A program made the position numbers and the translations under genes. Positions 11,101-57,644 of a DNA stretch of 64,000 bases are shown piece after piece. Where the stretch lies: assembly GCF_037042905.1 (NCBI RefSeq), contig NC_087251.1:20276001-20340000 (forward strand), read 5' to 3'. This DNA is from Lytechinus pictus (taxonomy: Eukaryota). How positions within the stretch are numbered: position 1 is the stretch's first letter; each line of letters opens with the position of its first letter. The notes beneath the pieces are model-generated. The model had not been told where the DNA came from. It saw only the letters and a program-made list of their open reading frames with translations, and searched no databases.

Positions 11101-12391
11101 TGATCGACTTCCATCGAGGATTCGGGCTAAATTCCGCCCGCCACTTCCGGGGACCAACCAACGTAGTATTTCGATGAAGAGCACTCCGTCGATTCACCGG
11201 TTGTCCCTACCGTACACGCGCGCCTATGGGGATTGTGAACTGTAGGAAAAATCGTATAAAATTACACTTTTTGATATTTCTACGAAGACGAAGTTATATA
11301 GAAAATGAAGAATATTACAATCAGACCATATCCCTAGAAAATTGCTTCAAGAAATGTCATTATGAAGAGGAAATGGACAAAAATTTGTGAAGAAAAATCA
11401 CGAAAAAGGAAATCGCATCATGAATATTCATATCATGGGCGGTCCCACATTTGCATGTTATAGCGAGTTTTCCATTATTTAATAAATAATGGCATTATTT
11501 AATAAATAATGGCATTATTTAATAAATAATGGCATTATTTAATAAATAATGGTTATTTGTATATAAATAATGATTATTTGTATATAATGGCAAACTGTAA
11601 CAATTGTTTATAAATAATGATTAATGGGATATTGAAACAAAATTATTATTTATAAATAATGAAGTAGATATTTCATTATTTAACAAATAATCTTTATTTA
11701 TAAATAATGGAAAACTCGAACATTAAATAATGATTATTTATAAATAATGAGAATAATGGTGCACTCGAAAAAATTATTTATAAATAATGAAGTAGACGTT
11801 TTCATTATTTAACAAATAATCATTATTTATAAATAATGGAAAACTCAACAAATTATTTATAAATAATGAAAAACAAATAATCATTATTTATAAATAATGA
11901 AAAACAAATAATCATTATTTGTAAATAATGAAAAACAAATAATCATTATTTATAAATAATGAAAAACCAATTATCATTATTTATAAATAATGAAAAACAA
12001 ATAATCATTATTTATAAATAATGAAAAACAAATAATCATTATTTGTAAATAATGAAAAACAAATAATCATTATTTATAAATAATGAAAAACAAATAATCA
12101 TTATTTATAAATAATGAAAAACAAATAATCATTATTTATAAATAATGGAATGTCGAACTATTATTATTTACAAATAATGAAGTATTACTTGGAATTATAT
12201 ATAAATAATTAGAAATGATATTTTATATAATAGTAGTTATTTACAAATAAAATGTAAATTATATATAAATAATAGTTATTATTTAATAAATAATGATTAT
12301 ATAACAAATAATTGTTCTATATAATATTGGTACATTCGGCGCCTCATAGTTTTCGACTCGCCGTACTGCCGCCGTAGAGCAAATATGACCA
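8130..12391. mobile_element. Small palindromic MITE split by the 4.1-kb foldback
   Basis: ggtcacatttgttctacggcggccgtacggcgagtcgaaaac (8132-8173) is the inverse of gttttcgactcgccgtactgccgccgtagagcaaatatgacc (12349-12390). Confidence 0.75.
8247..12348. mobile_element. 4.1-kb non-coding foldback transposon with ~1.9-kb TIRs
   Basis: Termini tatgaggcgccgaatg..cattcggcgcctcata; 6-bp TSD gttttc; arms about 8247-10185 and 10500-12348 are near-identical inverted copies. Confidence 0.9.
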
Positions 12392-15300: not shown

Positions 15301-15816
15301 GCTACAATGTATTTCACAGCATTTCTGTTATTAATATGTTATTAATGTTCTTGCTCTTCATTTTTGCTTCATGAAAATTTTAAGAACCTCTAACCAATCT
15401 GAGCAAAAAAATTCTAAGTATTCCATGAAGGAAAGTTAATCAAACTCTATTAACTTATTGATAAGCAAATGATTAAAGTGATAAGCCATACCAAAAAGCT
15501 ATTGTGCAGAATATCATTGTTCAAGGTAACTTTAATTAAAATAAACGATTCACTCAAGTTTCTAATTATTGTATGTAATCAACAAGAAGCTGCTATAGTT
15601 ATATATAACATATTACTGATATTGAGTTGATATAAAGCTTTTAAAGCACAGGAAAAGAACAACAAACATTTAAGGCTACAAAGCAAAAAAAAGGTCTACT
15701 TAGTTAAAAGAAAAGAAGAAAAAAATTACCGCTTCTGGGCAACAATACCTCCCATCGTAAAAAAAGTTAAATGTTCTAGGGCCCTTAACACAAATCTTAG
15801 CGATTGATCAGACATA

Positions 15817-16874
15817 CACTCGGCAAAAAAAGTTCTTGGACACTTATAAAAGTTAAAATATTCCATATAGATATTTGATTAAAGGTAAATTATTGTATGT
15901 CATCATGACCAGACAATATTCCTCTTCCAGTATGACATGACATTTTCATGTGAACAGTCATGCATGGGTGGTTATATGCTTTAAACAATAGCAATGTCAG
16001 TAAAAGAAAATTGCAAGAAATGGAACAGTCAGTGCATGGCTGGTTACAGGCATTAAACAATAGCAATGTCAGTAACAGGAAATTGCAAGAAAATGATCAG
16101 TCATTCTTTCAGTTGTGAAAGTTTATGTGGCATAAATATCCATTAAACGATAAAAGCAAACTTAAAGTCAAATACCACTCTAAGAGAGAAGAGAAAATTA
16201 TCCACCTTGGACGCATCACTCGGGGCATCACTATTCCACTGGAATTTAAAGTCAAAGTTAGTCGATGAATTTCAGATCCGATAGTTGGTGCAGTGACACA
16301 TCGCCTTCTCAACACAAGCATCCTTATCCTCCTATCTTCTGCAGGGGTGGTGGCCCTAGGTCGACCACTCTTAGGGGGGTCTCTAACTTCATCAGTAGCC
16401 AAATACCGCTGGTTCAAATTTGAAATTGTTGTTGGTGAAACTTGGAAATATCGAACCACTCGTCTAAATGACTGCCCAGAATGCATTCTTATTGCTCTTG
16501 CACGCTCTTGGTTGGAAAGCTTCATCTTGAAAGTGAGTCTCCAAATGATCCATCTCATTATGCATCTCATGATGCATCCCTAAGCATTCAATTCAAATGA
16601 TAACCCCCTGTTGAAATTGTTGAATGTATGCCTACAGGGTGGCCATGATCATTAGCATTTGAATGGTCCATTTCTTGCAATTTTCTTTTACTGACATTGC
16701 TATTGTTTAAAGCATTTAACAACCCATGCATGACTGTTCACATGAAAATGTCATGTCATACTGGAAGAGGAATATTGTCTGGTCATGTTGACATACAATA
16801 ATTTGCCTTTAATCAAATATCTATATGGAATATTTTAACTTTTATAAGTGTCCAAGAACTTTTTTTGCCAAGTG
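15817..16874 (-). mobile_element. Internally deleted Tc1/mariner element with residual N-terminal transposase (HTH, GRPR)
   Basis: TA TSD; ~200-bp TIRs cactcggcaaaaaaagttcttggacac..gtgtccaagaactttttttgccaagtg; ORF 16109-16570 has MKLSNQERARAIRM..TISNL..SGRPRATTPAEDRRI but no DDE domain. Inserted in a gggccc-ended MITE (about 15779-16960). Confidence 0.88.
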
Positions 16875-17254
16875 TATATGATTGTACATCATAATCAATA
16901 AAATCTATCTTTAAAATCAGCTCTTATGATCACATGCTAACCTTTGTGTTACCAGGCCCTGGAAAGTGAAAATCAAAGCTATAAAAACTGTCTCAAATGG
17001 GAGAGATTCCCTTTCAAAATGGAAAAGTGTCTTTTATAGATCAAATTCTCAGTAAAAATCCATAGCTGAGATCAAATGCAAATGTCTACAATTAATGGGC
17101 AATGCATCAGAGCTGTTCTTCCCTTTTTACGTGTCATCAGGAAACCCATTATTACAAATATAGTTCAGAAATGGATATAAAATACTGTATTTCAAATGAC
17201 ACATACATGTTCATGTACCTTGGGGAAAAAAATAAAAGTAGAAAAAAAAAAGAC

Positions 17255-18647: not shown

Positions 18648-21600
18648 GGGTCAATCCATATCAAATCAACCGATGCTTGTCACCCGACCCCCTCCGATTT
18701 TCTTTAAACTCGCACCAAATGTGCCCCCAAGTGTCTGACGGAAAATTCTGGAATATTTTGCCCCAAGGTCAAACGGTTGCTAAGTTACGGCCTCCCTTAG
18801 CAACCAATGTCTGGCCAAACAATAAAGTTTAAATAAAATTAGCTATTTTTGATTGACTGCTGGAGCCAAGTTTGATGACGCAGTGTTCTAATTTTCTGTA
18901 AATTGGAAGAACTTTATAGTCTTAACACACACAATATAATTTGACATGGATCTGACCAGCCATTATTGCGCACAAGGTCACCGAACATGGTGTTAAGCGT
19001 CCAAGTCAATGTTTTTGGGTGCATGTTTGGAGGCACATAACTTCTAAATTCAATTAGCTTAGAACCCAATATTATGCATATTTGAAGACTATGACTTGCT
19101 CAACAGACCTACAAAAAATTGGCCCTACCATGCGTGTCAATTTCTTGTAGGGCGCCCTCAAAGTTGGATTTTTTCTAAAAGTTGCCAAGTTCAAGGTCAC
19201 AAAGCACCCCTCGTCCCATCCAAGTGCGACCCCAATTTCTGTATACTGATAGACATTTACCTATATTTTCATGGGATACTTAACATTTTTTGTGACCGAA
19301 ATGTTTAATAGCTGGTTTACGCATTCGAAAATGGTCGTAAACACCCCAAAATCGATGTAAAACGACACATACAAGTTTTCAGCACATTTCAAATTAGGAT
19401 AAATCCAAAATGAAAAGGGAGCAATCACTGGTATTGTCTGTAATGGTAGTCTGTAATGAGTACTAAAAGGATATGCATCACAAATAGTTTGTCTTATTTG
19501 CAATGCCCTTGAAAAACACAGCTGAAAATCATAAAAAACAATAAATCGGGTCAATTTTCCGTAATGATAGGGCGTTAAAATGTGTTTACACCCACTTTCA
19601 CTTGTTGGTCATTTCAATACTAATGGTGACTTTAAGCTGATAATTGCAAATCATGTTCCTTTCTGGTTCTATTTTAAGCTCCAAATAATATATAAAGTCA
19701 TATCTTTATCTTTTGACCTTGACATTGATCTAAAAATAGCTATAAATGCCCTAACATTAGCATATTCACAACATGTGAGCTTTACAACACATTTCAAAAT
19801 TGATTTTCTCACAGACTAAATGCCTGATCATATGGATATTTGCAGTATTGGTAGTCCATAATGAGTACTTGGAAGATATAGTATTAATTAATTGTTCTTA
19901 CATGACAATGACCTTGAAAATACAGGTGAAATCCACACAAAAATTCAATAATCCGCCGATATCCCATTATTATAGGTTGTTTACACCCACTTTCACTTGT
20001 GTGTCATTTCAATACTAATGGTGACTTTAAGCTGATAATTGCAAATCGTGTTCCTTTCTGGTTCTATTTTAGGCTCCAAATAATACATAAAGTCATATCT
20101 TTATCTTCTGACCTTGACATTGATCTAAAAATAGCTGTAAATGCCTTAATATGGGCATATTCACATTTTAAGGCATTTACAGCTATTTTTAGATCAATGT
20201 CAATGTCAAAATATACATATATTACTTTATGTATTATTTGTAGCTTAAAACAAGAAAGGAGCATGATTTGCAATTATCAGCTAAAAGTCACAATTAGTAT
20301 TGAAATGAGACAAAAGTGAAAGTGGGTGTAAACAACCTATAATGGGATATTGGTAGATTATTGATTTTTTGTATAAATTTCAGCTGTATTTTCAAGGTCA
20401 TTGTCATGTAAGAACAATTAATTAATACTATATCTTGAAAGTACTCATTATGGACTACCAATACTGCACATATCCATATGATCAGGCATTCAGTCTGTGA
20501 GAAAATCAATTTTGAAATGTGTTGTAAAACTCACGGGTGTTGTGAATATGCCAATTTTTAAGGCATTTACAGCTATTTTTAGATCAATGTCAAGGTCAAA
20601 AGATAAAGATATGACTTTATGTATTATTTGGAGCTTAAAATAGAACCAGAAAGGAACATGATTTGCAATTATCAGCTTAAAGTCACCATTAGTATTGAAA
20701 TGACCAACAAGTGAAAGTGGGTGTAAACAACCTATAATAATGGGATATCGGCGGATTATTGAATTTTTGTGCGGATTTCAGCTGTATTTTCAAGGTCATT
20801 GTCATGTAAGAACAATTAATTAATACTATATCTTCAAAGTACTCATTATGGACTACCAATACTGCAAATATCCATTCGATCAGGCATTCAGTCTGTGAGA
20901 AAATCAATTTTGAAATGTGTTGTAAAGCTCACGTGTTGTGAATATGCTAATGTTAGGGCATTTATAGCTATTTTTAGATCAATGTCAAGGTCAAAAGATA
21001 AAGATATGACTTTATGTATTATTTGGAGCCTAAAATAGAACCAGAAAGGAACATGATTTGCAATTATCAGCTTAAAGTCACCATTAGTATTGAAATGACA
21101 CACAAGTGAAAGTGGGTGTAAACAACCTATAATAATGGGATATCGGCGGATTATTGAATTTTTGTGTGGATTTCACCTGTATTTTCAAGGTCATTGTCAT
21201 GTAAGAACAATTAATTAATACTATATCTTCAAAGTACTCATTATGGACTACCAATACTGCAAATATCCATATGATCAAGCATTCAGTCTGTGAGAAAATC
21301 AATTTTGAAATGTGTTGTAAAGCTCACGTGTTGTGAATATGCTAATGTTAGGGCATTTATAGCTATTTTTAGATCAATGTCAAGGTCAAAAGATAAAGAT
21401 ATGACTTTATATATTATTTGGAGCTTAAAATAGAACCAGAAAGGAACATGATTTGCAATTATCAGCTTAAAGTCACCATTAGTATTGAAATGACCAACAA
21501 GTGAAAGTGGGTGTAAACACATTTTAACGCCCTATCATTACGGAAAATTGACCCGATTTATTGTTTTGGATGATTTTCAGCTGTGTTTTTCAAGGTCATT

Positions 21601-23643
21601 GCAAATAAGACAAACTATTTGTGATGCATATCCTTTTAGTACTCATTACAGACTACCATTACAGACAATACCAGTGATTTCTCCCTTTTCATTTTGGATT
21701 TATCCTAATTTGAAATGTGCTGAAAACTTGTACGTGTCGTTTTACATCGATTTTGGGGTGTTTACGACCATTTTCGAATGCGTAAACCAGCTATTAAACA
21801 TTTCGGTCACAAAAAATTTTAAGTATCCCATGAAAATATAGGTAAATGTCTATCAGTATACAGAAATTGGGGTCGCACTTGGATGGGACGAGGGGTGATT
21901 TGTGACCTTGAACTTGGCAACTTTTAGAAAAAATCCAACTCTGAGGGCGCCCTACAAGAAATTGACACGCATGGTAGGGCCAATTTTTTGTAGGTCTGTT
22001 GAGCAAGTCATAGTCTTCAAATATGCATAATATTGGGTTCTAAGCTAATTGAATTTGGAAGTTATGAGCCTCCAAACATGCACCCAAAAACATTGACTTG
22101 GATGCTTAACACCATGTTCGGCGACCTTGTGCGCAATAACGGCTGGTCAGATCCACGTCTAATTATATTGTGTGTGTTAAGACTATAAAGTTCTTCCAAT
22201 TTACAGAAAATTAGAACACTGCGTCATCAAACTTGGCTCCAGCAGTCAATCAAAAATAGCTAATTTTATTTAAACTTTATTGTTTGACAAGACATTGGTT
22301 GCTAAGGGAGGCCATAACTTAGCAACCGTTTGACCTTGGGGCAAAATATTTCATTTTTTTCCGTCAGACACTTGGGGGAACATTTGGTGCGAGTTTAAAG
22401 AAAATCGAAGGGGGTCGGGTGACAAATTGTCTAACAAGTGGAACGCCTCTGGCAGTCTCGCCTGCATTACGCAATTTAACATAGCAGCAGTGCTAACTTT
22501 GAAAACTACTATAAAATAATCATTCACAAAAACACCATTCATATAATGATATAATACCACGTTCATTGACCATAGATGACATTTGAACGGTGACTTAAGA
22601 CTTGTCAACTACACCCATGTCCACATTTCATTCACTCTATCCATAAACTTTCAAAGTTATGATGGCACTTCAACAATTACCCCCAACATGGCCTAAGTTT
22701 ATTGACCTTAACTGACCTTTGACTTGGTTTTGTGACCTGAAACTCACAGGGGATGTTCAGTGATGCTTGATTACTCTTATATCCCAATTTTTATGAACTA
22801 GATCCATAAACTTTCAGAGTTAGGATGGTAATTCAACAAATACCCCCAACACGGCCAAAGTTCATTGACCTTAAATGACCATTGACCAAGGTCATGTGAC
22901 CTGAAACTCACACAGGATATTCAGTGGTTCTTGATTAACCTAATGTCCAAGTTTCATGAACTAAATCCATAAATTTTCAAAGTTATGATGGTAATTCAAC
23001 AAATACCCCGAACTTGGCCAAAGTTCATTGACCCTAAATGACCTTTGACCTTGGTCATGTGACCTGAAACTCAGGCAGGGTGTTCACTAATACTTGATTA
23101 ACCTTATGTCCAAGTTTCATGGACTAGATCCATAAATTTTCAAACTTATGATAGTAATTCAACAAATACCCCCAACTTGACCAAAGTTCATTGACCCTAA
23201 ATGACCTTTGACCTTGGTCACGTGACCTGAAACTCGAGCAGGATGTTCACTAATACTTGATTAACCTTATGCCCAAGTTTCATGAACTAGGTTCATATAC
23301 TTTCTAAGTTATGATGTCATTTCAAAAACTTAACCTTCGGTTAAGATTTTGAAAATAATTTTCCCAACATGGTCTAAGTTCATTGACCCTAAATGACCTT
23401 TGACCTTGGTCATGTGACCTGAAACTCAGGCAGGATGTTCAGTAATACTTTATTAACCTTATGTCCAAGTTTCATGAACTAGGTCCATATACTTTCTAAG
23501 TTATGATGTCATTTCAAAAACTTAACCTTAGGTTAAGATTTGATGTTGACGCCGCCGCCGCCGCCGTCGGAAAAGCGGCGCCTATAGTCTCGCTCTGCTA
23601 TGCAGGCGAGACAAAAATTGGTTGATTTGACGTGGATTGACCC
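18648..23643. mobile_element. Large foldback element (Sola2-like termini) with 395-bp internal tandem repeats
   Basis: Termini gggtcaatcc..ggattgaccc, 4-bp TSD atta. Left arm 18648-~20160 mirrors the right arm (the ORF track is mirrored, e.g. 19096+ vs 21794-). The right terminus is displaced by an insertion at 22433-23617. Confidence 0.82.
22433..23617 (+). mobile_element. HINE-like family A, full copy with 163-bp tandem array
   Basis: aacaagtgg..gtctcgcctgcat at the 5' end, atgcaggcgagacaaaaa at the 3' end; inserted between two Ts with no TSD; period 163 (22838, 23001, 23164). Confidence 0.78.
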
Positions 23644-24052: not shown

Positions 24053-26874
24053 ACTAGACATGCTCGGTGGGTCGCGCAGCCGAGCATATGTATCCCCCGA
24101 ACCCACCGCATCATCCGTCATTGCGATATATAGAGCTCTCACAGATATTTGACAAATAAATACAATTGTCATGGCGACAATGACCCTGCCCACATTTTGC
24201 CTGTGGGTACCAAATATGATGACAATAATATGACGTAGCAGCATGACTCTGCAGAACCTAAAATATGTCCAGTATCACCTGTTGGGGAATACAATTATAG
24301 AGTAATCTGGATATATTTTATAAACCTAACCCTAAGACCCCCCACCAAAAATGATAGGCACCTTCGCTTCACCTTCTAATATTGCTTCTGTGTGCCAACT
24401 GTTATGACAAACTGGAAAAAAAGCAGACGTTACAGGTTTTACCAAATTTTCCACAAAAATATGGTTTCCATGGCAAACAAGTCTCCACCCACTCCAAAAT
24501 CATTAGGCGGCTTTGATTTACCATAATGGAGCATCATGACAAATCAGAAGATAATTGGAGAAGAAATGCAGCCAGTAGAGCACTCACAAGGAAATCTCTG
24601 CTATTTCCACAAAAAATCCTGTTACCATGGCAACGATGTCTCCGCCCACACCAAAATCAATAGGCGGCTTTGCTTTACCATAATGGACCTTCATGCCACA
24701 TTTGAAGATGATCGGAGAAGCAATGCAGCTGGTAGAGCGCTCACAAGGAAATCTCTGCTATTTCCACAAAACTCTTTTTACCATGGCAACGATGTCTCCA
24801 CCCACGCCGAAATTGATAGGCGGCTTCGATATACCACACGCAACCTTCATGCCACATTTGAAGATGATCGGAGAACTAGAGAAGAAATGCAGCTGGTAGA
24901 GTGCTCACAAGGACATCTCTGCTATTTCCACAAAAACTTGTTACCATGGCAACGATGTCTCCACCCACACCAAAATCGATAGGCAACATCGCTATACCAC
25001 ACTCAACCTTCATGCCACATTTGAAGATGATCGGAGAAGAAATGCAGCTGGTAGAGTGCTCACAAGGACATCTCTGCTATTTCCACAAAAACTTGTTACC
25101 ATGGCAACGATGTCTCCGCCCACACCAAAATCGATAGGCAACATCGCTATACCACACTCAACCTTCATGCCACATTTGAAGATGATCGGAGAAGAAATGC
25201 AGCTGGTAGAGTGCTCACAAGGACATCTCTGCTATTTCCACAAAAACTCTTGTTACCATGGCAACGATGTCTCCACCCACGCCAAAATTGATAGGCGGCT
25301 TCGATATACCACACGCAACCTTCATGCCACATTTGAAGATGATCGGAGAACTAGAGAAGAAATGCAGCTGGTAGAGTGCTCACAAGGACATCTCTGCTAT
25401 TTCCACAAAAACTTGTTACCATGGCAACGATGTCTCCGCCCACACCAAAATCGATAGGCAACATCGCTATACCACACTCAACCTTCATGCCACATTTGAA
25501 GATGATCGGAGAAGAAATGCAGCTGGTAGAGTGCTCACAAGGACATCTCTGCTATTTCCACAAAAACTCTTGTTACCATGGCAACGATGTCTCCACCCAC
25601 GCCAAAATTGATAGGCGGCTTCGATATACCACACGCAACCTTCATGCCACATTTGAAGATGATCGGAGAACTAGAGAAGAAATGCAGCTGGTAGAGTGCT
25701 CACAAGGACATCTCTGCTATTTCCACAAAAACTCGTTACTATGGCAACGATGTCTTCGCCCACACCAAAATCGATAGGCAACATCGCTATACCACACTCA
25801 ACCTTCATGCTACATTTGAAGATGATCGGAGAAAAAATGCAGCTGGTAGAGCGCTCACAAGGACATCTCTGCTATTTCCACAAAAACTCTTGTTACCATG
25901 GCAACGATGTCTCCACCCACACCAAAATCAAAAGGCGGCTTTGCTTTACCATAATGGACCTTCATGCCACATTTGAAGATGATCGGAGAAGCAATGCAGC
26001 TGGTAGAGCGCTCACAAGGAAATCTCTGCTATTTCCACAAAACTCTTGTTACCATGGCAATGATGTCTCCGCCCACACCAAAATCAATAGGGGGCTTTGC
26101 TTTACCACACTCAATCTTCATGCCACATTTGAAGATGATCGGAGAAGAAATGCAGCTGGTAGAGTGCTCACAAGGACATCTCATCTATTTCCACAAAAAC
26201 TCGTTACCATGGCAACGATGTATCCACCCACACCAAAATTGATAGGCGGCTTCAATATACCACACTCATTCTTCATGCCACATTTGAAGATGATCGGAGA
26301 AGAAATGCAGCTGGTAGAGTGCTCACAAGGACATCTCTGCTATTTCCACAAAAACTTGTTACCATGGCAACGATGTCTCCGCTCACACCGAAATCGATAG
26401 GCAACATCGCTATACCACACTTAACCTTCATGCCACATTTGAAAATGATCGAAGAAAAAATGCAGCTAGTAGAGCGCTCACAAGGACATCTGCTATTTCC
26501 ACAAAAACTCTTGTTACCATGGCAACGATGTATCCACCCACACCAAAATCGATAGGCGGCTTCGCTATACCACAGTCAACCTTCATGCCACATTTGAAGA
26601 TGATTGGAGAAGAAATGCAGCTGGTAGAGTGCCCACAAGGACATCTCTGCTATTTTTCACAAAAACTCTTGTTACCATTGCAACGATGTCTCTGCCCACA
26701 CCAAGATCGATAGGCTTCTTCGCTATACCATACTTAACCTTCATGCCAAATTTGAAGATGATCGGAGAAGAAATGCAGCTGATAGAGCGCTCACAAGGAA
26801 ATCTCTGCGGCGGACGTGGCGGCGCGACGAGGCCAAATCCACAGTATCCTCCGAACTCTATTCGGGGGATACAA
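24053..26874 (+). mobile_element. HINE-like family B carrying a ~2.4-kb satellite (155-164-bp monomers)
   Basis: 5' actag plus hairpin atgctcgg..ccgagcat and subTIR gtatcccccgaa; 3' hairpin gtatcctccgaa-ctcta-ttcgggggatac; about 15 tandem units between ~24400 and 26810. Confidence 0.78.
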
Positions 26875-32277: not shown

Positions 32278-33249
32278 CTGTAATACATCATTAAAATGAA
32301 AAAGAGAGTGAAATAGTCATTATGTGTTTTAATAAATAAATTTTTGATATAGGCTAAAACAATCACTCGGTTAAATTATACTTCAACATATCAATAATTA
32401 CATGAGGATTTGACAGCACCAGCTCACTCATAGGCATTTATGCAAATCAATGTTCCACAAAACACTTTAAACTTCCACAGCTTTGTTAGCATCACTTATC
32501 CAATATTCAATCAATTTTAAACTGTAGAGAGGATATCACGCGTTTAATATGACTCTAGATATTATACTAGAATAACTTTTACTTGGGTTGGAATAATCTC
32601 AAGAGTAAGACATATTCTCATTGCTCCTTTTTTGTTGATGCAACAGTGGATTCATCAATTAAAAACAGTGAAATCGTGAATAAAATAGTGTGCATAACCA
32701 TGGCAGCAGGTGTCAATTTAGCTGTGAAAAAGAGGTGCATCGGCATTGGACATTATTGAAGAAATACAGTAAATGAAGCGTAATTTGTACAGGAAATCTC
32801 CATAAACCATGGGTTCAACCGATAGTTTTCAAAACCACCTTTGTGATTTTCGAGCCTTAGAGTTTTGTTGCAGGCTTTTACATGTACCTCAATGGCTTCA
32901 AATTACATGACTACTGTAAAGGAAAACAGTTCCTGTAGATGTGTAATCCCCATGTTGAAAGGGACAGGAAATGAATTAATCCTATTGAACAGGAAATAAA
33001 AGAATTAATTTTGAGAAGACTTCCAGGAAACAGTATATTTTCTTCAGGTAAGTATTTATTCTTAATGGGATCATATTCACAAAACTGCACGAATACCCTC
33101 TACATGAACAGCCTCCTCTGATTTTTCTCAATTCTTCTCTTTTTGACTTGATCTACTTCTTTATAATAGGCTACTCTTCCCCTCTCATTCTATGTTCTTG
33201 CTTTTTGCTCTTCGCTCCTTCACCCTCCCCCCAAGAAATATGCACTTAC

Positions 33250-33411
33250 TGGAAGATTGTTGGCAAGGATGTAACTGCAAAACGTCCACTCAATCCTGGT
33301 TCCTCTGTAACATCAACCTCAGCAATGTTAGCGTTAAGTTCTTGACTCCAATCAGACAGCTCCTTCCAAACAGGCATAATGGACTTGCATGCCGGACACC
33401 ATGGAGCATAA
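33250..33411 (-). CDS. TMX1: TMX1-like exon 2 (active site WCPAC)
   Basis: ttttccAG acceptor and GTAAGT donor; encodes (F)YAPWCPACKSIMPVWKELSDWSQELNANIAEVDVTEEPGLSGRFAVTSLPTIF(H). CPAC is the TMX1-type motif. Confidence 0.96.
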
Positions 33412-39679: not shown

Positions 39680-40038
39680 TATTATGACGACTGGGCCTAG
39701 GCCTAGATCTAATTCTAAGTAAAAAAATGCTCGCAAACGATCTGCACTCAAATTGCACGGGCAATTGTGGGCGCTAGTGTAGTTTAGCACCTCCCCGTTT
39801 AATGGTTTTCAAACATGTACAATCTCACCCTAAATAATTCACAACCTAAAATACTTGCATCTGAGCCTCCAAAGTCCAGTAGAACTAGAAGTTGAATATT
39901 TGCCGTTTTGACACTTTTTTACAAAGTTTTACACCTATTTCGGAATCACTCGGTCGCTTGATCAAGCTCAGCGCTGCACATAAGCAGTCGGTACGCGTAC
40001 AGTACGTACCACCTACAGTAGTGAAGTGCAAGAAGAGC

Positions 40039-41151
40039 TCTTCTCTTCTTCTTATGTTGGTTTGAGTGGCAATTAGTCATATTTGACTATTGTCGCCATT
40101 GACTTTATCTATAAAATCTCACTTCTCATATTATTACCAATATGATGTATACATGCATATATGAAATATTTTTCTTGTGCATCCTTCTATTATAAAAATG
40201 ATGAATATAGTATACCGGTCTACAAAAGTTTGTCTTAACTATTGTCAAAATGGCATATAAACAAATCTTCACCAAAAACAAACCGCTATCTTCAGCCCAG
40301 TTCCAACTAGTTGCGCTTGCCCTGCCCTTTCTAAGATGCAATCATACCGGTCAGCACGGTACATTGTGCCGATTTTTCGGACATAAAATGCCTAGGTCAC
40401 CCATGCATAGACAAGGGGGCGCTAGTGTACCTGTGCTTACAGATGGGTTAAACATTAATATTTTTTTTAATACTTTTTTACAATAACAACAACAACAACA
40501 AGGCGAAAACACTTGTGGGCTCGGTTAGTTAAAAGTGCAGAACATATTATATATACATATTATGTATGTATATATATATATATATTTTTTTTTTTCACAT
40601 AGAACTTTATATACGAGCATATCCTTTCATATTTCTTATAAACAATACAATATAATAATAGCACATATCACTCCTTACTAAAACGTTTCGTTCTTGAAAC
40701 GAAACGTACAAATGCTTTCTGTATCCCTGGATCATCTTTTTTTAAATACTCCATTATTTGTCGAGGCTGTGATTCATTCAATTCTGCAAGGAGCATTGAT
40801 CGTTCAATTGTATATTTTGGACAATGTAAAAGATAATGTCTGACAGTTTCTACCTCAGGACATCTATCACAAAGCCCTGTTTGATGGATCCCTAATCTTA
40901 GTAGATCTTGGTTAAGACCAGCGACTCCAAAACGGAGACGATGGAGTACAGTTTCCTGTCTCCCTAGATTACATTCATATGTGGATAGCACTGATGGTTG
41001 CAGTTCTTTCAGTGCTGAGTTAGTTTTATTCCATCTTTCTTGCCAAATTATCTTACAACTTTTTGAAATAAGTTTCATAATTTCTGATAATGTTATTTGA
41101 TTATGAATTTCTATTTTGTTTGATAAAGCATTTTTTGCGCAGGAGTCTGCT
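40039..41151 (-). mobile_element. I/Nimb-like LINE 3' end (end of RNase H, CCHC finger, 3' UTR, AAG-type tail)
   Basis: ADSCAKNAL..WQERW..LHRLRFG..CDRCPEVETVRHYLLHCPKY; minus-strand tail aagaagaagagaaga; splits the left arm of the host MITE. Confidence 0.78.
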
Positions 41152-41954
41152 AGTTTTTCTATGGTATCTTCAAAAAGATTTTTTCCCCTCTTTCAGCTTG
41201 CACTAAGTATTACGGTAGTGGTTGTGCAGAGTGGTTTTTTTAAGGATGAAATGTACATTGCATGTCCCAGGTGGTATGGATGGAGATGGTACGGCGTGTG
41301 AAAAATTGAAAAATGTAATCTACTAGCATGAAATCAACATAGCATACAATTGTAAACTGAAGGAAAGTTCTCTGACCTAGAGTTCAAAACAAGGCTCTAC
41401 ATTATTATTTCTTACTTCATCGCTAAATCTACGTGTATTCACATTTTTCACATTTCTTATTTCATTCAAACAAGCACACACACGCACACCCCACACACAC
41501 CTTCACACAACAAACATCAACCACTCTGCACAACCACTACCGTAATACTTGGTGCAAGCTGAAAGAGGGGAAAAAATCTTTTTGAAGATACCATAGAAAA
41601 ACTCGCTCTTCTTGCACTTCACTAGGTGGTACCACTGTCAGTGGGTGGTACGTACTGTACGCGTACCATAGAGATGTATACTAATTACGCTAGAGTGCGG
41701 AGTCGCCATAGGCGCGCGTACATAACGTCTGTGATTGCGCGGAAGATGGTCGGCCATTGCTCGATAGGTCTAGATTCGCAAAAGCACCCGGATGTACCCA
41801 TAGCTCCTCGTACGTTGTAACGCTGTTGAAAAGGGATGCTGTCTCCGGCTTTTATCTTGAAGAAAGGAATCAAACCTAATTACAATTGAAAATATGAATG
41901 ACAAATTGCATCTCAATAAACTATTAGTGTGATTACATGGGGATTCTGCTATTC

Positions 41955-42943
41955 CAGGGGTTCTCAAACTACGGCCCGCGGGCCGGATCCGGCCCGTTGA
42001 GCTTCTCAATCCGGCCCGCGAGACTCTGCTGGGTTTTTTAAAATAACTTTTAAGTCACAATATGAAACATAGCTCAATATGATTACATTGTGTATCCATG
42101 TAGACCTAACCGTAATAAAAGTAATGGCAGTCAAATTAATTTGACTTTTAAACAAAGTTTAGTGGAGTCTTTTCTGTCTGTTCGATCTATATTAGATGAC
42201 CAGCGCTGTTCTCACCATGTTTGGATCTACATACAGGTGCGAAAGTGTATTTTCCACTCTGAACATTTTAAAGAACTAACTCATACCGAAGTACCTTGAC
42301 AGGGGCCGCGGAACGGTTTTCAATGTGGGGGGGGGAGGTGGCTGCACCTTGCAAAAAATTGTAAAAGTGTGGGGGCTGAACAAACCCCCCCCCCCCGCTT
42401 CCGCGGCCCCTGCTTGACCAGTGAACATTTGCACCAGTGCCTTCGTCTGGCAATTAGGCCTACACCTTTTGTGCCAAGGTGCAAGCAACTTGCTGTTACG
42501 TTTCCCATATTGAAAGTGACTCTATAGGAGACTGACATCCTTGTTATAGTCTACAACAGACATGCTCTATTATTCATTCTACTTTGAATCCAAAAAAATA
42601 TTGATACTTCAAGACATTATCTGTCTTCCCAATACCAGGTATGTATAGGTACAATCTATATTCCTTTTAACAAAGTACTACAAGTTTGTTATCATATTGA
42701 CTCTCGATGTTTTTTTAAATCTTTTCTAATTTTGCCTGCGTTCCATATGAATCTGTTAAAAATTTGTTGGATTAAATGCTCCCAAAATAAGGACCAGATT
42801 GAACAAGAGAGCATCTCGGACCCGACCGCAAGTGTCTTTGCGCTTCGCGCACATTTTTTTCTAAGTTTTCACTTCACCCTGGCCCTTTCAGGTTTACTTG
42901 GAGTCTCATCTGGCCCTTCAAAGAAAAAGTTTGAGAACCCCTG
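41955..42943. mobile_element. hAT (Charlie-like) non-autonomous element
   Basis: caggggttctcaaact..agtttgagaacccctg; 8-bp TSD tgctattc; subterminal ggccc repeats. Confidence 0.85.
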
Positions 42944-45900
42944 TGCTATTCATTTGTCTTTTTATCTGGATTCTCGGGATGAAATTCTCTATACAGCGGC
43001 ATTTACGATTACCTGCCACATGCCTAATAATATAGATAACAATATTGATAATATGACATAAATAAGTAGAAAAAAATAAAACATACAACATTAAAAGTAA
43101 ATTTTGACAATTATTTCAAAAGACAGTGAATTAGCCCATCTTCTCTGAACTTCCCTATCTTTGGCTTTAATGATACATCATCCTTTGGCACATTCCTTCG
43201 TCCACATTATTCCGTGTTCTCATGACCAAGTGATGGATATAATTTTGTAATTTTGATTCATTTCAACTCTATTCGTTTCATTTCATTTCACTTCACTTCA
43301 TTTTTTTTTTTCATTTTCATTCAAACATAATACAAAGTAATATAAATCGGATAGGCCCTACAAGTTTACAGATGAACATTCTTATCTCGTAAAAACCCAG
43401 TAGGCCTAGTAAAATTGAGCATAAATGGCCAAGTACATGTAACTTGCATTAATTTGTATGAAGTATATACTATTTTTTTTTTTAATGTACAATAATTTAT
43501 ATAAGTGTTTTGATCTTTGACTACTATTTTATTAGCAAGTATAGAGTATTTAAAGGGCATCGTATTAATTTTACATCATGGTGAGCCTTCCGTTACACCA
43601 TCAATGGTAAAACTATATTGGGTTTTCAGTGCACTTGTTTTTTTTTTCTCATAGGAACATGATAAATTCCCTAAATCTGCGGGGCCTATATCGCACCGAA
43701 AATGAAATATTGAAATATTGTCAAGTCTAGATTTTCCAGAAAATCAAAGAGAAACTCTTTTACATTGCTTTAAACACGCATTGTAATTTGTTTATCATGT
43801 TATTTGCAAGGCAATACTGTAAACATAATTTCCCCCATTAGGCCTCCTGTACATTACAAAATTGTACAACTGCATGCGCGTTTTTGATATGCAAATTTTG
43901 CTGTCAACAAACTTTTCTACATTGATTTGCACGTAAGAAAGTAATTAAAATGATCGGATGGTTGCCAATATTGGAAATCTAAATCATATAACTCATAGAT
44001 TCATCAATTAACTGGACCAATGCGTAAATCATTTTCAAATATTATCAATAAAATGTCATTTTTATGACTCACGATTTATTGTGATGACGGTTCGACGTTT
44101 AAACCCATGGGGAAAAGGAGTTATGGCCTATTCTGATGTCTATGTGTCGATCTAGTACATGGAAAAAAATAAGACAATTATTAAAAAAAAACAGAAGAAA
44201 TAAATTATCAGCATCATGGATATGCCTAGGCCTACATGTTATTTTTAATATTCTTTCCAAATCATTAGAAAATAAAAGTCATAGAAATAAATGTAGCGAC
44301 CTATCGAAATGTTTAATATGACCAAAGCAAAAGCAACTCTGGATGCATCATTGGCCTGTATATGCGCTATTGATATTCCTATATATATATAGGCATTTTT
44401 GTTCTCGTTTTGTTAGATTTTTTGTTAATTTAAACTTTAATTCAGTATATTCAAAACTATTTAACTTTTCCATTTGCTTTCGAGCTCATATGCCATCATT
44501 TTGTTCCGTTTCTGTGCTATCACTGTACATGCCCCATAGGTACTGTACGCGCATGGCCACCCAAGGGTTCATTACATGCCGCCGCGCACAGAAAATTCAA
44601 GCCATAGAAGTCGTGTGTTGTGGACCCAAGAAGTGAGATCCCAGCATGCGCGACCCACTAGTTAGAAATCCACTGCCAAACGCGGTTCGTGGTGCGAGGT
44701 TAGTATACTAATACTAACCTCGCAATACGTGTGAGTGGCGCATGGCAGGCTTCAAAGACCTATCGAGTAATGGCGGCCGGTCTCCGCGTAATCACAGCGA
44801 TTTGACGAAGTACGCCCTCTAGCGTTATTAGTATACATCTCTATGGACTCACTCACACAACATGCGAGGTTAGTATACTAACCTCGCACAACACATGTGA
44901 TTTCATAGTGCATTTTGACGTTTTCTTTCATCACACGAATGTGAGGGACTAAACTACGCCAAACCTTTCAATATTTGTCCACTATGTTAATCTTGATCGT
45001 ATGGTCTAAGTTTATTTGAAAAAAAATTATAAATTATTTATTAAAGTGTTTTTATCGCTTACCTCCAAATCTCAACCAGGATACTTCGCTCGGTCCCTCC
45101 TTAGTCATCCTTCGTACTGCGGTGGAAATTACGCAAACAACAATCGAAATGCGAAATTTTCCTATCGAACATTCTCGATTCAAGTCGTCGGCGCATAATA
45201 GGAAATTGTACCAAAAATCAACATAGTTCTCTATTTATTCAAACAATTTTTTCTGGGGTGCACTTGACCTTTAAGAGATTTTCCAATGAAAATATTACAT
45301 GGAACTTGGAAATACAAATCATAATTTGGTTGAACAAAATGTTTTCTGTTAAAGTATAAAACAGAAGAGGAACATATCCTTCACGTATTATTATATCCAA
45401 AATATGTTGCCTTAGTATGGAATAATCACAATGACATAAAATGAAAATGGGTAAAGTACCTTCCTAATGATCATTGAGATTTCGCCTATGGAATCATTGT
45501 TTAATAATTTTCAAAGCTTTAAATAGATGAAAATGTTCATTGAGAAAATATACATATATATATATGAACAAAATGATAATGTCCCGATTGTTTCGCATTA
45601 CGTGTGTTAGATTGCGGGCGTTTGTGTGTGTGTGTAGGAAGCAAGATATTCGTGTTAATGTTTGCACAAAAAAGGAGAGGGAAAGGGAAAGGAAAAGGGG
45701 AGGGGGAAAGGTAGAGGAGAGAGAGGGAAAAGGAGACCATAAAATAGAAAGAAAACAAAGGAAAGGAAGAGGGGAAGGGAGAGAGAAAGAAAAATGGAAA
45801 GAGCGAGAAAAGAGTAGGGGAGGGAGAAAGGAAAGAAAAGAAGGGAAAGGAAAAAGGGAGAAAGGGAATGGAGGGGGCGGGAAAGGAAAGGAGAGACAAT

Positions 45901-46541
45901 AAAAGACAGATCAGGGGAGGGGGAAAAGTAGAGGAGAGAGAGGGAAAAGGAGGCCATAAAATATATATAGGTCTCCTCATCATGGTTATAAAAAGTGCTC
46001 AGAATGTTTTATTTTCAAGTCCTTGTATCAGAATTTTCAGCTCGGGCAGCTCTATCGCATTTTGATTACTATCCTGTTGATTTATTTACTTGAACAAAAT
46101 ATTTAAAATGTCCAGCTTTTAGAGCAGATATCAAAAAAAGGTATTCACCTTTGATCATAGATGAGGAAGAAGAAAAAAGTGCAAAAAAATAGGAAACAAA
46201 CTAACGAATTAATGTGACATAATTTTTTTTCATTTCAAGGCGACTCTTTACATTTCATCATCGCTGATGGCGCTACAATAGAAAATACCGCTTGACAGCA
46301 AAAAAAAAAACAGAAAGAGGAAAATAATGCTGAGCGTCTAAAATGCAGCTAGCAGTACAAGCTGCAGAACCGTAAACAAACATCTTGTGAATAATATCGC
46401 GCGCCCTCTTTAAGCAAAAGTTTACAACCACAATGACCCTGCGGTATCTACGTGAAGATCACGAGAAAATGCTTTTTTTTTCTTAAAAACACACCAAAGA
46501 GAAGACAAGAAACGATCCATATGATTCGGTAAGTGTCATAG

Positions 46542-47223
46542 TAGGGTGTCTGAAGCCACACTGAAAAGTGTCAGCATAAAACAGGCTAATTTAGGGGAAA
46601 ATATGGCACATTTTTTCAGGGAAGTTCAGGCTACTAGAAAAATGTGATCTGAATTGATTATTAACTTGTGTTTGGCATGTATGGAAAGAGAAAATTCAGG
46701 GGCATCTTTTGACAGTAAGGACAAGTTTATATGATCATTTTAAATAAGGGTTTAGAGATAAATTGCAAACCCTTATTTTTGTGTGTGTTGAGATTGCCAT
46801 TTCTCCATGCGTTTTCTATGGGAAAATGAAATTTCTGTTTTGCACAATTTTTTTCACTTTGTCGCAATTTTTCATTGTGATCTGGTTTCCAAATCTTTAT
46901 GAAAATCATACCATCAGATAGAGCATAAAAAATCCTATTGGACTCTTTATGGACAAGTTTTTGGCATTAATAATAAATTTATAACAGCTCTCGGAAGCTA
47001 AAAATTTGGATTTGTGTGTGTCCATTTCTTAACTACACAGTCTATGGCAGAGAAATGCTGAAAATTTACCTAATTTCATTCTTCTTTTTTGCAGCCAATA
47101 ATTGGATTTTTTTCAAAATTTTTACATTTCTGTCAGTCTGAAGGTCATTTCTCTTCAAATTCACAAAGAAAATGTGATGTTTTCTTGAAATAAGAAAAAT
47201 AATTTTTTTCTCCAGACACCCTA
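46542..47223. mobile_element. TIR element with 7-bp TSD
   Basis: tagggtgtctg..cagacacccta flanked by gtcatag on both sides. Confidence 0.78.
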
Positions 47224-47708
47224 GTCATAGCACAATTAGAAACATTATTTTAAGAGGAATGGCATAGTTATTTTAGTAAAAAGGGTGTGAAAAATTCGCG
47301 TGCACCATGTGCATATGAATCCTTCGCACGCGAGATGCATTGATCCCATGAGATAGCACTATGACGCGTACCGACTGCTTACTTATGTGCAGCGCTGAGC
47401 TTCAAGCGACCGAGTGATTCCGAAATAGGTGTAGGGCCTAAAACTTTGTAAAAAAAAGTGTCAAAACGGCAAATATTCAACTTCTACTGGACTTTGGAGG
47501 CTCAGATGCAAGTATTTTAGGTTGTGAATTATTTAGGGTGAGATTGTACATGTTTGAAAACCATTAAACGGGGAGGTGCGAAACTACACTAGCGCCCAAT
47601 TGTGAAAGCCCCTTCACACTGACATGACTTTACATGGTTGGGACTGAAGTGAAAATAAATAATTTTTTAACCATCTCTAACGTTAGAGACTACGGTACCG
47701 GTACGTAC

Positions 47709-47848
47709 AATTTGATAAGCCATTCCCCTTCCAGCGTCCTTGACCAATTCTTGTCTGTAATCTTCACAACATGTGTCTTTCCTGATTCTCCAAATCGAAA
47801 TACAAATATGAGGAATAATATGATCAAAACTTCGCGTTTTGGATACAT
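47709..47848 (-). CDS. TMX1: TMX1-like thioredoxin-related transmembrane protein, coding exon 1 (signal peptide and start of Trx fold)
   Basis: ATG at 47848 gives MYPKREVLIILFLIFVFRFGESGKTHVVKITDKNWSRTLEGEWLIK(F), matching the TMX1-type N-terminus (ITDxNWxxxLEGxWxIxF). Donor GTACGT, phase 2, joins exon 2 in frame. Confidence 0.9.
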
Positions 47849-48333
47849 TTTCTCCAGTGTTGTAATATGGTACTTCGATGATCGCAATAAAATGATAAAG
47901 GGCGGCCTACCGGTATATAGTCTATCAGTTCATGCTTAACGCACGCTTAATTGTGTTTCCTGCATGCTGTGCATGTGAGCGCAAGATTGCTGACAAACTC
48001 ATTGCTACTCTCTGTGTCAATAACGACTGGTTCAAGAGTCAAACACATTTGGGCCATTGCACTTCCTCATTGACGTACACGTGTAAATCGCTGGCAACCT
48101 GATAAAATTGATAGTAAAAGTAAACCATGGAGCTATTAATTATGGTAAAACCATGCACACGATGATTTTCACAAAAACTCGGGAAGCCAGGGAATTTATA
48201 TCCTGGATAGGTAAACCATCACTGACATGGATCCGGACATATATTATATTTTGGGTTAATTGGCATTGTGAAAGGGGGGGGGGGGGGGGCACAGCTAGCC
48301 AAAATACTGTAGGGCCCTGGACAGGCGAAATTT

Positions 48334-55943: not shown

Positions 55944-57125
55944 CTAAGACGGGTCCATCATTCGACCCATGAAGATGACTGACTTAGTCAACCTGTGACG
56001 AATGATAAACAGGAACGGGTGGTCTGCACGGAACAAGATTGGATTCTCTGGCTTGGCTGGCCTAGACTTGTCATACAGCATCACAACGGCTGTTGCAGCA
56101 GCTGCCTCACTCCCTTCTTCATTGACATCGACAAACGCCTTGTGGATGATTGCAGATATATACAAATCTTTATCACCTGTGATGCCTTCGAAGTTGGCCC
56201 TGTCTTCATCGAAAGCGTCAGGCATTCCAATTACTTTGAGGGTATCTGCAAGTTGGAATTCTGCCTCTAGCTTGAATTTTGGCAGCATCACGTTTACTAG
56301 TGTTGATTGAAGCCCTTTGTCCCAAGATTGGAATGTTTCCGTAGATAGATTCGACTCAAGTTTATCTAGGCCATCGTCTTTGTTTGGAAGAGCAATCAGT
56401 AGACTCAGGCACTGGCCTCTATAAGGCAACTCTAAGACAAGACAGTCATTGGATTTATCTATGGCCAAATTGAATTTCTTTCTTTGAAACATACGGTTCA
56501 TCTGTACAATCCTTCTTTCATCTAAAACCTTGAAAGAATCCTGAGTAGTATTGCTTGGAAGAAATTTTGATTCCCATACACCATTGAAATAAATGGCATT
56601 TACAAGAACAAGTCTAGTGAGAGCGTGAAGAACTCCCGGAGCTATCAAGTCTTTAATCTTTCCTTCTGTTTGCTTTGAAACCCAATCGTTAATAGATTTA
56701 GTGGTAGTGGGATCTGCAAAGTCATCAACTGCCTCAATGGCTGCTCCATAGTATGAAGCAGTACCTTCGAGAAACGACCGAACAAAGTTGTAGCCAGATT
56801 TTCCATATAGCTTATTGGCTGCATGAAGCTTGTAACCAGAATCTGGTTTATAGAGCAAACTGTTCAGTTCTTTAAATGTTCCATGAAGTTGCCTGAGGTC
56901 TGCCTGGTTGACACGAAAGACATTTGCGATCTGACTGGCTGTATCACCTCTGGCTCCTAGCTGCGTCATTGCCAGAGCTGTGGATATGCTGAGGGGAGAG
57001 AAGAATACGTTTCTACCACCCCGTCCATCTCGAAGAGTTTGATAGAGGTAGATGGCGAATGCATTATTTGCCCCGGAAAGCTGCAAAAGCCGTTCAGATG
57101 CAGGTGGCTTTCTAAAATACTCCAT
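55944..57125 (-). CDS. Serpin (intracellular, clade-B/leukocyte elastase inhibitor-like), single coding exon, 393 aa
   Basis: Motifs NVFFSPLSIS, LVLVNAIYFNGVW, LPKFKLE, hinge VNEEGSEAAAATA, signature FRADHPFLFII; no signal peptide. A splice acceptor (ttattatcAG) ends 17 nt before the ATG, implying a 5'-UTR intron. Confidence 0.96.
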   Translation of the reverse strand: MEYFRKPPASERLLQLSGANNAFAIYLYQTLRDGRGGRNVFFSPLSISTALAMTQLGARGDTASQIANVFRVNQADLRQLHGTFKELNSLLYKPDSGYKLHAANKLYGKSGYNFVRSFLEGTASYYGAAIEAVDDFADPTTTKSINDWVSKQTEGKIKDLIAPGVLHALTRLVLVNAIYFNGVWESKFLPSNTTQDSFKVLDERRIVQMNRMFQRKKFNLAIDKSNDCLVLELPYRGQCLSLLIALPNKDDGLDKLESNLSTETFQSWDKGLQSTLVNVMLPKFKLEAEFQLADTLKVIGMPDAFDEDRANFEGITGDKDLYISAIIHKAFVDVNEEGSEAAAATAVVMLYDKSRPAKPENPILFRADHPFLFIIRHRLTKSVIFMGRMMDPS

Positions 57126-57184
57126 CTCTCTGATTTTGAGACCTGATAATAAAAAAAGAAAAATATATCGGTAATCAACTTTTA

Positions 57185-57644
57185 TATATCCCTCATTCTT
57201 CCTATTGCATTATTATGGTGCAGTAACATGGTCCCTGCGGAAAGTGGATCAAGACAGGCTTGCAGTCTTTGAAATGAGATGCCTTCGCACCATGTTAGGT
57301 GTACATTTAATGGACAAAGTCAGGAATGCGGACATCAGGATGAAATTACATATCAAAAACACAATATGCGAGGAAGCTTCAAAAAGACGCCTGAGGTGGT
57401 TTGGGCATGTATGCCGTTTGTCACAAAACCGCCTTCCAGTTCAGGCATACCGAAATTACTTTGACAAGGGGAGACCACCAGGACGTCCCCCTTCCAGATG
57501 GAGGGACCAAGTCAGACGAGATGTGGGTCTCCCTCTATACTGGATGCTGAAGACCTAGCCCAGGGTAGAACTGAATGGAAAAGGATCATCCGTAGGAGAG
57601 CGAAGGGACACACCGTCCTATGCACATAAGTCAGTCAGTAAGTC
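57185..57644 (+). mobile_element. RTE-clade LINE, 5'-truncated 3' end
   Basis: YGAVTW..RLAVFEMRCLR..RRLRWFGHV..RPPGRPPSRWRD; (AGTC)n tail; imperfect 12-bp TSD aat(c/t)aactttta. Confidence 0.85.

Follow-up and report, generated by a model that had tools for sequence, protein, structure and literature searches.

How can a block of inserted DNA be bordered by a perfect target duplication and end in two termini that do not pair with one another? The question is raised by 5.7 kb (41667-47363) lying in one arm of a host element, within the first intron of a TMX1-like gene in Lytechinus pictus; the window, to which all coordinates refer, is the whole stretch of 64,000 nucleotides that was analysed (NC_087251.1, 20,276,001 to 20,340,000, forward strand). 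The original prediction, made from the sequence alone, was that a P-like transposon had skipped its own right end and brought along 2.5 kb of genomic donor flank (44846-47363). That the block is a composite insertion rather than one ordinary family, and that its outer right end is not the partner of its left end, holds up. The extra DNA is not donor flank, however: it belongs to a second multi-copy transposon, here called Y, which is found in all four public runs aligned (X1, X2, X13 and X15). Read from its sequence, the block is a pair of adjoining non-autonomous transposons, A and then Y, with further elements nested in them. While A, Y, the nested elements, the 8-bp duplication and an empty form of the site are matters of observation, the history that brought them together has to be weighed, and the likelihoods we attach to its versions are judgements, not computed values.

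Contigs of the four runs (of 18 listed) were aligned to 41250-48150 at 85% likeness, and the rows reported cover a part of each table (joints, 15/131; loose ends, 24/1425; pieces, 32/9835; difference rows, 40/475); statements below about contigs, pieces and joints refer to these, and a failure to see a contig spanning a junction among them is evidence neither way. Run X15 is spliced RNA, as probably is run X13, and the depths of both are not copy numbers. Run X1 has zero cover at exon 1 and the promoter; this is a hole, and serves as a weak contrast only.

The insertion site itself is simple. The duplication bordering the block, ACGCGTAC, is exact over 8 bp; the ninth base after it is also identical, but is part of the terminal CATAG. 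On the plus strand of the 64 kb the 8-mer occurs three times, as the two flanking copies and in the host element's intact arm. As the intact arm (minus strand) holds one ACGCGTAC at the equivalent place, the host arm has been broken at a single point, just as had been claimed. A host arm free of the block is seen in joints 41632->47364 (runs X1 and X13) and 41666->47382 (run X15). These are an empty form in public data, which may stem from further host-element copies and not necessarily from this locus, and the contig of run X1 in which the block is skipped does not qualify as an empty allele of this locus. The original prediction had proposed to look for the empty site; an empty form is present as a sequence in three runs, possibly at other host-element copies.

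The left part of the block is element A, a family with CATAG...CTATG ends. Its left end (41667-41771) has its true inverted partner inside the block, at 44756-44845, as predicted; the two agree at 73.6% over ~106 columns, and at 19/20 and 28/30 of their terminal bases. The 3.2-kb unit forms a separate repeat family, and relatives of A occur in 4/4 runs. They are mostly diverged, most pieces being 3-12% different and patchily aligned; one piece, from run X15, departs from A by no more than 1 base and an 18-base gap. Short-form relatives also exist (joint 41685->44820).

What, then, are the 2.5 kb that follow? The key is a small element, X, nested in A and flanked by an exact 9-bp duplication, GCGCATGGC. 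Its empty site is joined at 44548/9->44738/9 in runs X1, X13 and X2 (9, 9 and 8 shared letters, respectively), so that both of its ends are verified. The right end of X matches the sequence from 44850 onwards at 22/26 bases, which places the start of Y at 44850, four bases after A. By sequence comparison, 44850-47352 is a transposon related to X, leaving of the supposed flank only four bases on the left (44846-44849) and the last 11 on the right; plain flank amounts to at most four bases.

The public runs confirm that Y is repetitive. In run X1, Y pieces cover 45194-45462 at 12.4x (1/269 differences) and 45961-46534 at 14.5x (5/574), and inner Y pieces in general stand at 12-18x, against no cover in the exon-1 and promoter bins; the contig over 45961-46534 lacks the miniature inverted-repeat transposable element (MITE) that follows here at 46542-47223, and so derives from another copy of Y. 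Depths over the Y region are 80-480x in runs X13 and X15, with 1-2 differences per 190-470 bases. Run X2 reaches 20,000-53,000x in the bins 44715-45407, 46332-46562 and 47256-47486, compared with ~17-45x for most single contigs listed; for the last of these bins, the depth of the next (64x) and a loose end at 47337 lead us to infer that it reflects the end of the block, not the host arm. Y pieces differ by ~1% or less, with one at 2%. The joints 45223->46260 and 46541->47263 show that the left, middle and right parts belong to one family.

Where Y ends on the right decides how the outer end of the block is to be read. The other end of X, laid in register on the right region of Y, agrees at 16/27 bases; the next-best offset gives 12, and 6 other places of 127,946 reach at least 16. 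The native end of Y is accordingly predicted, from homology, to read ...CCCATGAG plus two bases, just past 47352 and symmetric with the left end of Y. Depth points to the same place: in run X1 the match of the Y contig ends at 47351-47353, and for the bin 47256-47486 the expected mean is 15.38 if it ends at 47352 and 16.07 if at 47363, the observed value being 15.4. This arithmetic, which reproduced 3 control bins, assumes no third contig in the bin. The version of Y in run X2 departs after 47337. The outer right end of the block thus appears not to be Y's native end, and its last 11 bases are probably no end of Y at all.

Those last bases are not an end of A either, in any ordinary sense. Against the terminal inverted repeat (TIR) of A, the outer right end has 5 terminal bases identical, then 9/13 and 10/20. 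Since 9/13 or better is reached at 21/93 CATAG sites of the window, the likeness past CATAG is at chance level, in keeping with the claim that little is shared beyond the terminal motif. The outer end is the best of 5 CTATG sites past the inner end, and the same 21/93 sites score as high.

We suggest that the outer CTATG is a copy of A's tip made by the landing of Y. Y is preceded by nine bases that consist of A's terminal CTATG and the spacer GACT, and the left end of Y falls 9 bases after the start of CTATG; a 9-bp duplication like that of X, read here as CTATGGACT, would place a copy of CTATG right after Y, with a perfect match to A's tip of exactly 5 bases. Between the predicted end of Y and this CTATG stand six bases, ATAGCA, the reverse complement of the predicted junction. 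They would be produced by a nick two bases inside Y, a flank hairpin, and an opening four bases into the stem; in a hairpin model, 1/28 opening settings reproduces the observed junction exactly, and 2/6 patch bases alone speak specifically for Y's predicted tip. The spacer GACT differs from the four bases after the outer CTATG, as old flank would. On these grounds we consider it likely that Y ends where predicted and that the outer CTATG is a duplicated tip. Mutator-like elements (MULEs) are a candidate group for X and Y and offer a partial parallel. Mu makes 9-bp duplications. The flank hairpin of Muta1 would explain a palindromic patch, but the patch needs a nick 2 bases inside whereas the 43+43 hairpin of Muta1 implies a cut at the boundary (PMC5499845). 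Flank hairpins are known for MULE, hAT and Transib (PMC5499845), and, in contrast to Mutator-like elements, the inverted repeat of X and Y is imperfect and extends over ~6 bases.

How did the pair come to sit in the host arm? We lean, tentatively and at less than an even chance, towards an end bypass, in which the pair formed elsewhere, GACT is old flank, and the transposase of A used the duplicated tip. A copy of A would first have sat elsewhere, beside flank starting GACT. Y, duplicating 9 bp, would have landed across A's right tip and copied CTATG to its far side, and this far end would have been cut and resealed once, a 6-base palindromic patch replacing the last two bases of Y. The transposase of A would then have paired the left end with the duplicated tip, bypassed the inner end and moved 5.7 kb to the host arm, making the new 8-bp duplication ACGCGTAC. 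The four-base spacer needs no additional event in this history. This last step, the move, is the weak one. That a tip duplicated by the landing of another family became a new working end 2.5 kb further out, and that both families then moved as one unit, is a doubtful proposition, which we would sooner question than accept.

There is precedent for part of this. A Drosophila P element bypassed its own end in a case reported by Tsubota and Huong in 1991 (PNAS 88:693), as described in PMC8277862. That case resembles ours in that an element with TIRs used downstream sequence as a terminal repeat, with a new duplication around the whole; here, likewise, a complete element stands at one end and the duplication surrounds the entire block. 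It differs in that the P element carried single-copy DNA, whereas here the cargo is a second transposon and the false end seems to come from that transposon's target duplication. The same source calls end bypass anecdotal in animals (PMC8277862). ISEcp1 units similarly combine their own left repeat with an imperfect right repeat deduced in the flank, and have a duplication around the unit (PMC6061673), but they are bacterial, routine and make a 5-bp duplication, whereas ours is one eukaryotic instance. No case in which the target duplication of a second element had created a false end was found among titles and opening lines of abstracts in the open-licence literature, in searches not aimed at excluding it.

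Several observations weigh against an end bypass. The outer end is a poor mimic: 9/13 or better is reached at many a CATAG site in the window (21/93), and between the inner end and the outer one stand 4 further CTATG sites. P elements make an 8-bp target duplication, and their transposase has internal binding sites at fixed, unequal spacing and makes a 17-nt staggered cut (PMC7776569); this dependence on internal sites weakens the case, and GTATACTAA, a motif of A's TIR, has no match near the outer end. The 9-mer after Y, CTATGACGC, is a perfect target for an insertion in place, and its site shares 7 bases in register with the target of X, for the same type of end. Among the contigs listed there is neither a donor locus nor a contig across the A-Y junction. 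The native end of Y has been placed from the rounded depths of one contig together with homology. Finally, an age comparison in which Y would be older than the host copy (6/843 vs 1/555) is not significant (p = 0.25).

These points lead to the strongest alternative, assembly in place, which we regard as possible, again at a level short of even. A would have inserted at ACGCGTAC, and Y would have followed at CTATGACGC, straddling the right tip of A. Afterwards, an abortive cut that was resealed would have turned ACGC on the left into GACT and the last two bases on the right into the patch, with no false end and no movement of the block. Only two ordinary insertions are then required, the block stops exactly at the end of Y for an evident reason, the right 9-mer is perfect, and the right junction already bears a repair event. 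The site of X and that of the block share GTAC|GCG in register, as well as a 12-mer on the other strand; three other X flanks among the listed loose ends lack GTAC|GCG, however, one of the three being a mixed consensus. The difficulty lies on the left, where four bases must be replaced by four others with both neighbouring ends intact, and where the hairpin model that fits the right junction gives no GACT when worked by hand. GACT is also present in the host, 9 bases past the point at which the duplication starts, but 38/256 possible 4-mers occur in the host flanks, so that its being nearby says little.

A third history dispenses with recognition of a 5-base end altogether. If a copy of the A family was cut out here, the left side of the gap could have invaded a locus carrying A, GACT and Y, copied both elements and then been connected with the tip remaining on the right flank; the first insertion would have supplied the 8-bp duplication, and the patch would be the scar of joining. 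Excision of P leaves TIR overhangs, and repair is mostly by incomplete synthesis and end joining, often with templated insertions (PMC2895639), while single-copy Pack-TIRs arise mainly through gap filling with template switching (PMC8277862). Foreign DNA brought into an insertion site is common to these cases (PMC8277862, PMC2895639) and to the block, and the 1036-bp segment of Y resembles such cargo, but a Pack-TIR carries its cargo between the two TIRs of one element, whereas the right TIR of A is internal. Only 7 bases away there is a scar of the 5+1+5 form, and the last 11 bases of the block look like one of the 5+2+5 form minus its first base. Synthesis would, however, have had to run past the inner TIR, which is perfect, and past 2 to 4 CTATG sites that are closer. 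The loop of the patch, moreover, consists of two bases that agree with the last two predicted for Y (1 in 16 by chance), and folding back from a left-over tip gives no reason for this agreement. We therefore hold gap repair to be unlikely.

The remaining explanations fare worse. Were the Y family to end natively in ...GCACTATG, two elements of CATAG type might have been moved by their outer ends, as in the maize Ac/Ds macrotransposons, where two neighbouring elements likewise lie in one 8-bp duplication (PMC9910405). Both outer ends do start CATAG, and for other copies of Y the end has been located indirectly. True 5' and 3' Ac ends of one family are used in maize, however, whereas here the families differ and the outer right end, with 10/20 bases of A's TIR, is probably not a true one; moreover, the Y contig of run X1 stops at 47351-47353, the run X2 version departs after 47337, the homology with X puts the end inside, and the left end of Y is of CACTCAC type. 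We regard this as quite improbable. A single ordinary 5.7-kb family with unlike ends is more improbable still: such families exist here (X) and in maize Mutator (PMC10401008), and the one A piece of run X15 described above is nearly identical, but no run contains half of the words (best 0.42), A and Y differ in how far their pieces have diverged, and relatives of each occur separately in short forms (41685->44820 for A; 46541->47263 and 45223->46260 for Y). An assembly artefact joining two repeats, to which the lack of a listed contig across any of the three filled junctions, with the source sample apparently outside the runs, might point, deserves hardly any credence, as a mis-join would not create an exact 8-bp duplication relative to the intact arm or an empty form in three runs.

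Three further schemes were tried and rejected. A 13-bp duplication made by Y, from which 9 bases were later deleted, takes two ad hoc steps; simple stacking of the two elements next to each other at one 8-mer fails in that the middle copy is GACT, not ACGCGTAC; and a P-like second element with a hidden left end finds no other CATAG-type end in the block (at most 3 mismatches in 18).

To which superfamilies do the two elements belong? A appears, on its termini, compatible with the P superfamily. Its TIRs start with CA (19/20 bases), a trait that is not P-specific, and the 8-bp duplication surrounds the whole block, an exact match around A alone amounting to 0. Elements of the hAT superfamily likewise make 8-bp duplications and have CA-type termini similar to those of P. 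For X the 9-bp duplication typical of MULEs is exact; for Y it is putative. The ends of X form an imperfect inverted repeat over ~6 bases only, as do those of Y, and neither has long TIRs. MULEs without long TIRs exist. X and Y are thus best described, by sequence, as unclassified elements with a MULE-like duplication length, their lack of long TIRs lowering but not excluding membership.

Searches for coding or database relatives returned little. None of the 47 frames of at least 45 amino acids in the block had a Pfam match above the cut-off (two weak matches below it, MASE6 and ART, were rejected), and Rfam gave no match in the 64 kb. There were no matches to A's TIR in viral contigs or to the X/Y palindrome in metagenome contigs. 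A's TIR matched one metagenome contig (L001) over 20 bases; with no inverted partner and no further likeness, this was set aside as chance.

At present the locus amounts to a single nest of non-coding elements within an intron, and nothing points to an effect on the gene. It also illustrates a trap for repeat annotation: what would pass for a transposon with ends that do not match and a genomic cargo turns out to be two families and a probable duplicated tip. If the block did move by that tip, this would be a simple and general route to composite transposons in animals; target duplications would then give rise directly to false ends and to composites of different families, and ends could be read from as few as five terminal bases. 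The junction would, moreover, report on the cleavage chemistry of an unclassified family with 9-bp duplications (X and Y) that is abundant in these genomes.

Table 1. Features of the block and its surroundings (window coordinates).
Feature	Position	Strand	Basis or remark
Host element, arms ~270 bp	39769..47597		Duplication AATTGT (6 bp), or CAATTGTG (8 bp) with ends one base further in
Palindromic scar, 11 bp (5+1+5), between two GGTGGTAC copies	41633..41643		7 bases left of the block's duplication; absent from joints of runs X1, X13
Target duplication ACGCGTAC, 8 bp, left copy	41659..41666	+	Sequence comparison
Element A, non-coding, CATAG...CTATG, 3179 bp (~2.0 kb minus nested elements)	41667..44845		Arms 41667-41771 and 44756-44845
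MITE nested in A, presumably hAT-like, CAGGGGTTCTCAAACT ends, 8-bp duplication TGCTATTC	41955..42943		Joints across element in run X15
MITE, 113 bp, inside the preceding, 5-bp duplication CTTGA	42300..42412		Many diverging loose ends 42299-42300 in runs X2, X13, X15
Element X, 180 bp, unlike CAC...GTG ends, 9-bp duplication GCGCATGGC, nested in A	44558..44737		Exact duplication and empty-site joints
CTATGGACT: last five bases of A and 4-base spacer (44846-44849)	44841..44849	+	Putative left copy of Y's 9-bp target, by analogy with X's 9-bp duplication
Element Y, multi-copy, non-coding, X type	44850..47352		Left end 22/26 bases as X's verified end; native right end predicted two bases past 47352
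Segment of 1036 bp, long form of Y only: TTAA-type end and purine tract	45224..46259		Joint 45223->46260 in runs X13, X15; contigs 45194-45665 cross border there
MITE, 682 bp, TAGGGTGTCTG ends, 7-bp duplication GTCATAG, nested in Y	46542..47223		Absent in run X2 (joint 46541->47263) and, by piece coordinates, run X1 record 5
Patch ATAGCA, 6 bases, reverse complement of predicted junction (Y native end and CTAT)	47353..47358	+	Putative repair patch
Outer CTATG	47359..47363	+	Putative duplicated tip of A, not a transposon end
Target duplication ACGCGTAC, 8 bp, right copy	47364..47371	+	Sequence comparison
Exon 1 coding part, TMX1-like gene	47709..47848	-	Block in intron 1

The interior of Y accounts for the TTAA-type end, the purine tract and the donor-like sites that had been noticed in the extra DNA. 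The orphan TTAA-type end is truncated (45225-45274; the terminus is at 45255-45274) and has no partner in the window, and 9 contigs of run X15 diverge past 45275. The purine tract lies at ~45660-45960. Both are fixed parts of the long form of Y, present in many copies, and are missing from the short form. If there is captured genomic DNA here, it is probably this 1036-bp segment, which Y would have taken up earlier. The splice-donor-like sites, at ~45060 (minus strand) and 46529 (plus strand), are in the core of Y; they point away from each other and are brought close together in the short form. The pair might be what is left of a divergent promoter that served two genes in an autonomous parent. 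Ahead of the site at 46529 there is a short reading frame which, read by hand, stops early and was rejected.

A motif, GTATACTAA, is common to A's TIR and to the palindrome near the ends of X and Y (41676, 44700-44711, 44828 and 44870-44881), and all 6 of its occurrences in the window fall in ends of A, X or Y. It is a candidate common protein-binding motif.

The host arm has a history of its own. Directly left of the insertion site it carries 19 additional bases (41633-41651), and within 41625-41651 the palindrome between the GGTGGTAC copies resembles the excision scar of another element with an 8-bp duplication. Compared with the intact arm, the broken one also has insertions of 4 bases (47378-47381) and of 7 bases forming a short palindrome (47431-47437), with almost no substitutions. 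The arm may, judging from these marks, be a hotspot with repeated transposon visits. The 12-mer GTACTGTACGCG stands both at the site of the block (41652-41663) and at that of X in A (44540-44551); its first 9 bases occur 3 times in the 64 kb, and it is possibly a shared target motif.

The gene had been named as TMX1, with the block in intron 1 about 350 bp from exon 1, and this is close to what is found: a spliced contig of run X15 stops at 47709, the end of exon 1, 345 bases from the block. Exon 2 (33249-33410, minus strand) matches Pfam Thioredoxin (8.9e-13), and its best match is PDB 1x5e, thioredoxin domain containing protein 1.

Elsewhere in the window, 8246-12349 is a near-perfect foldback of ~4 kb (91.9% over 4017 columns by self-BLAST) with short internal repeats, 18677-22425 is a foldback with arms of ~1.5 kb at 97.6% and an internal repeated unit, and 24448-26808 is a tandem array with a period of ~155-160 bp. 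An open frame of 421 codons at 55944-57209 (minus strand) reads like what we take to be an intronless serpin. An element at 15814-16877, with 218-bp inverted arms at 96.8%, contains a frame (16109-16579) that is presumably of the Tc1-like helix-turn-helix kind.

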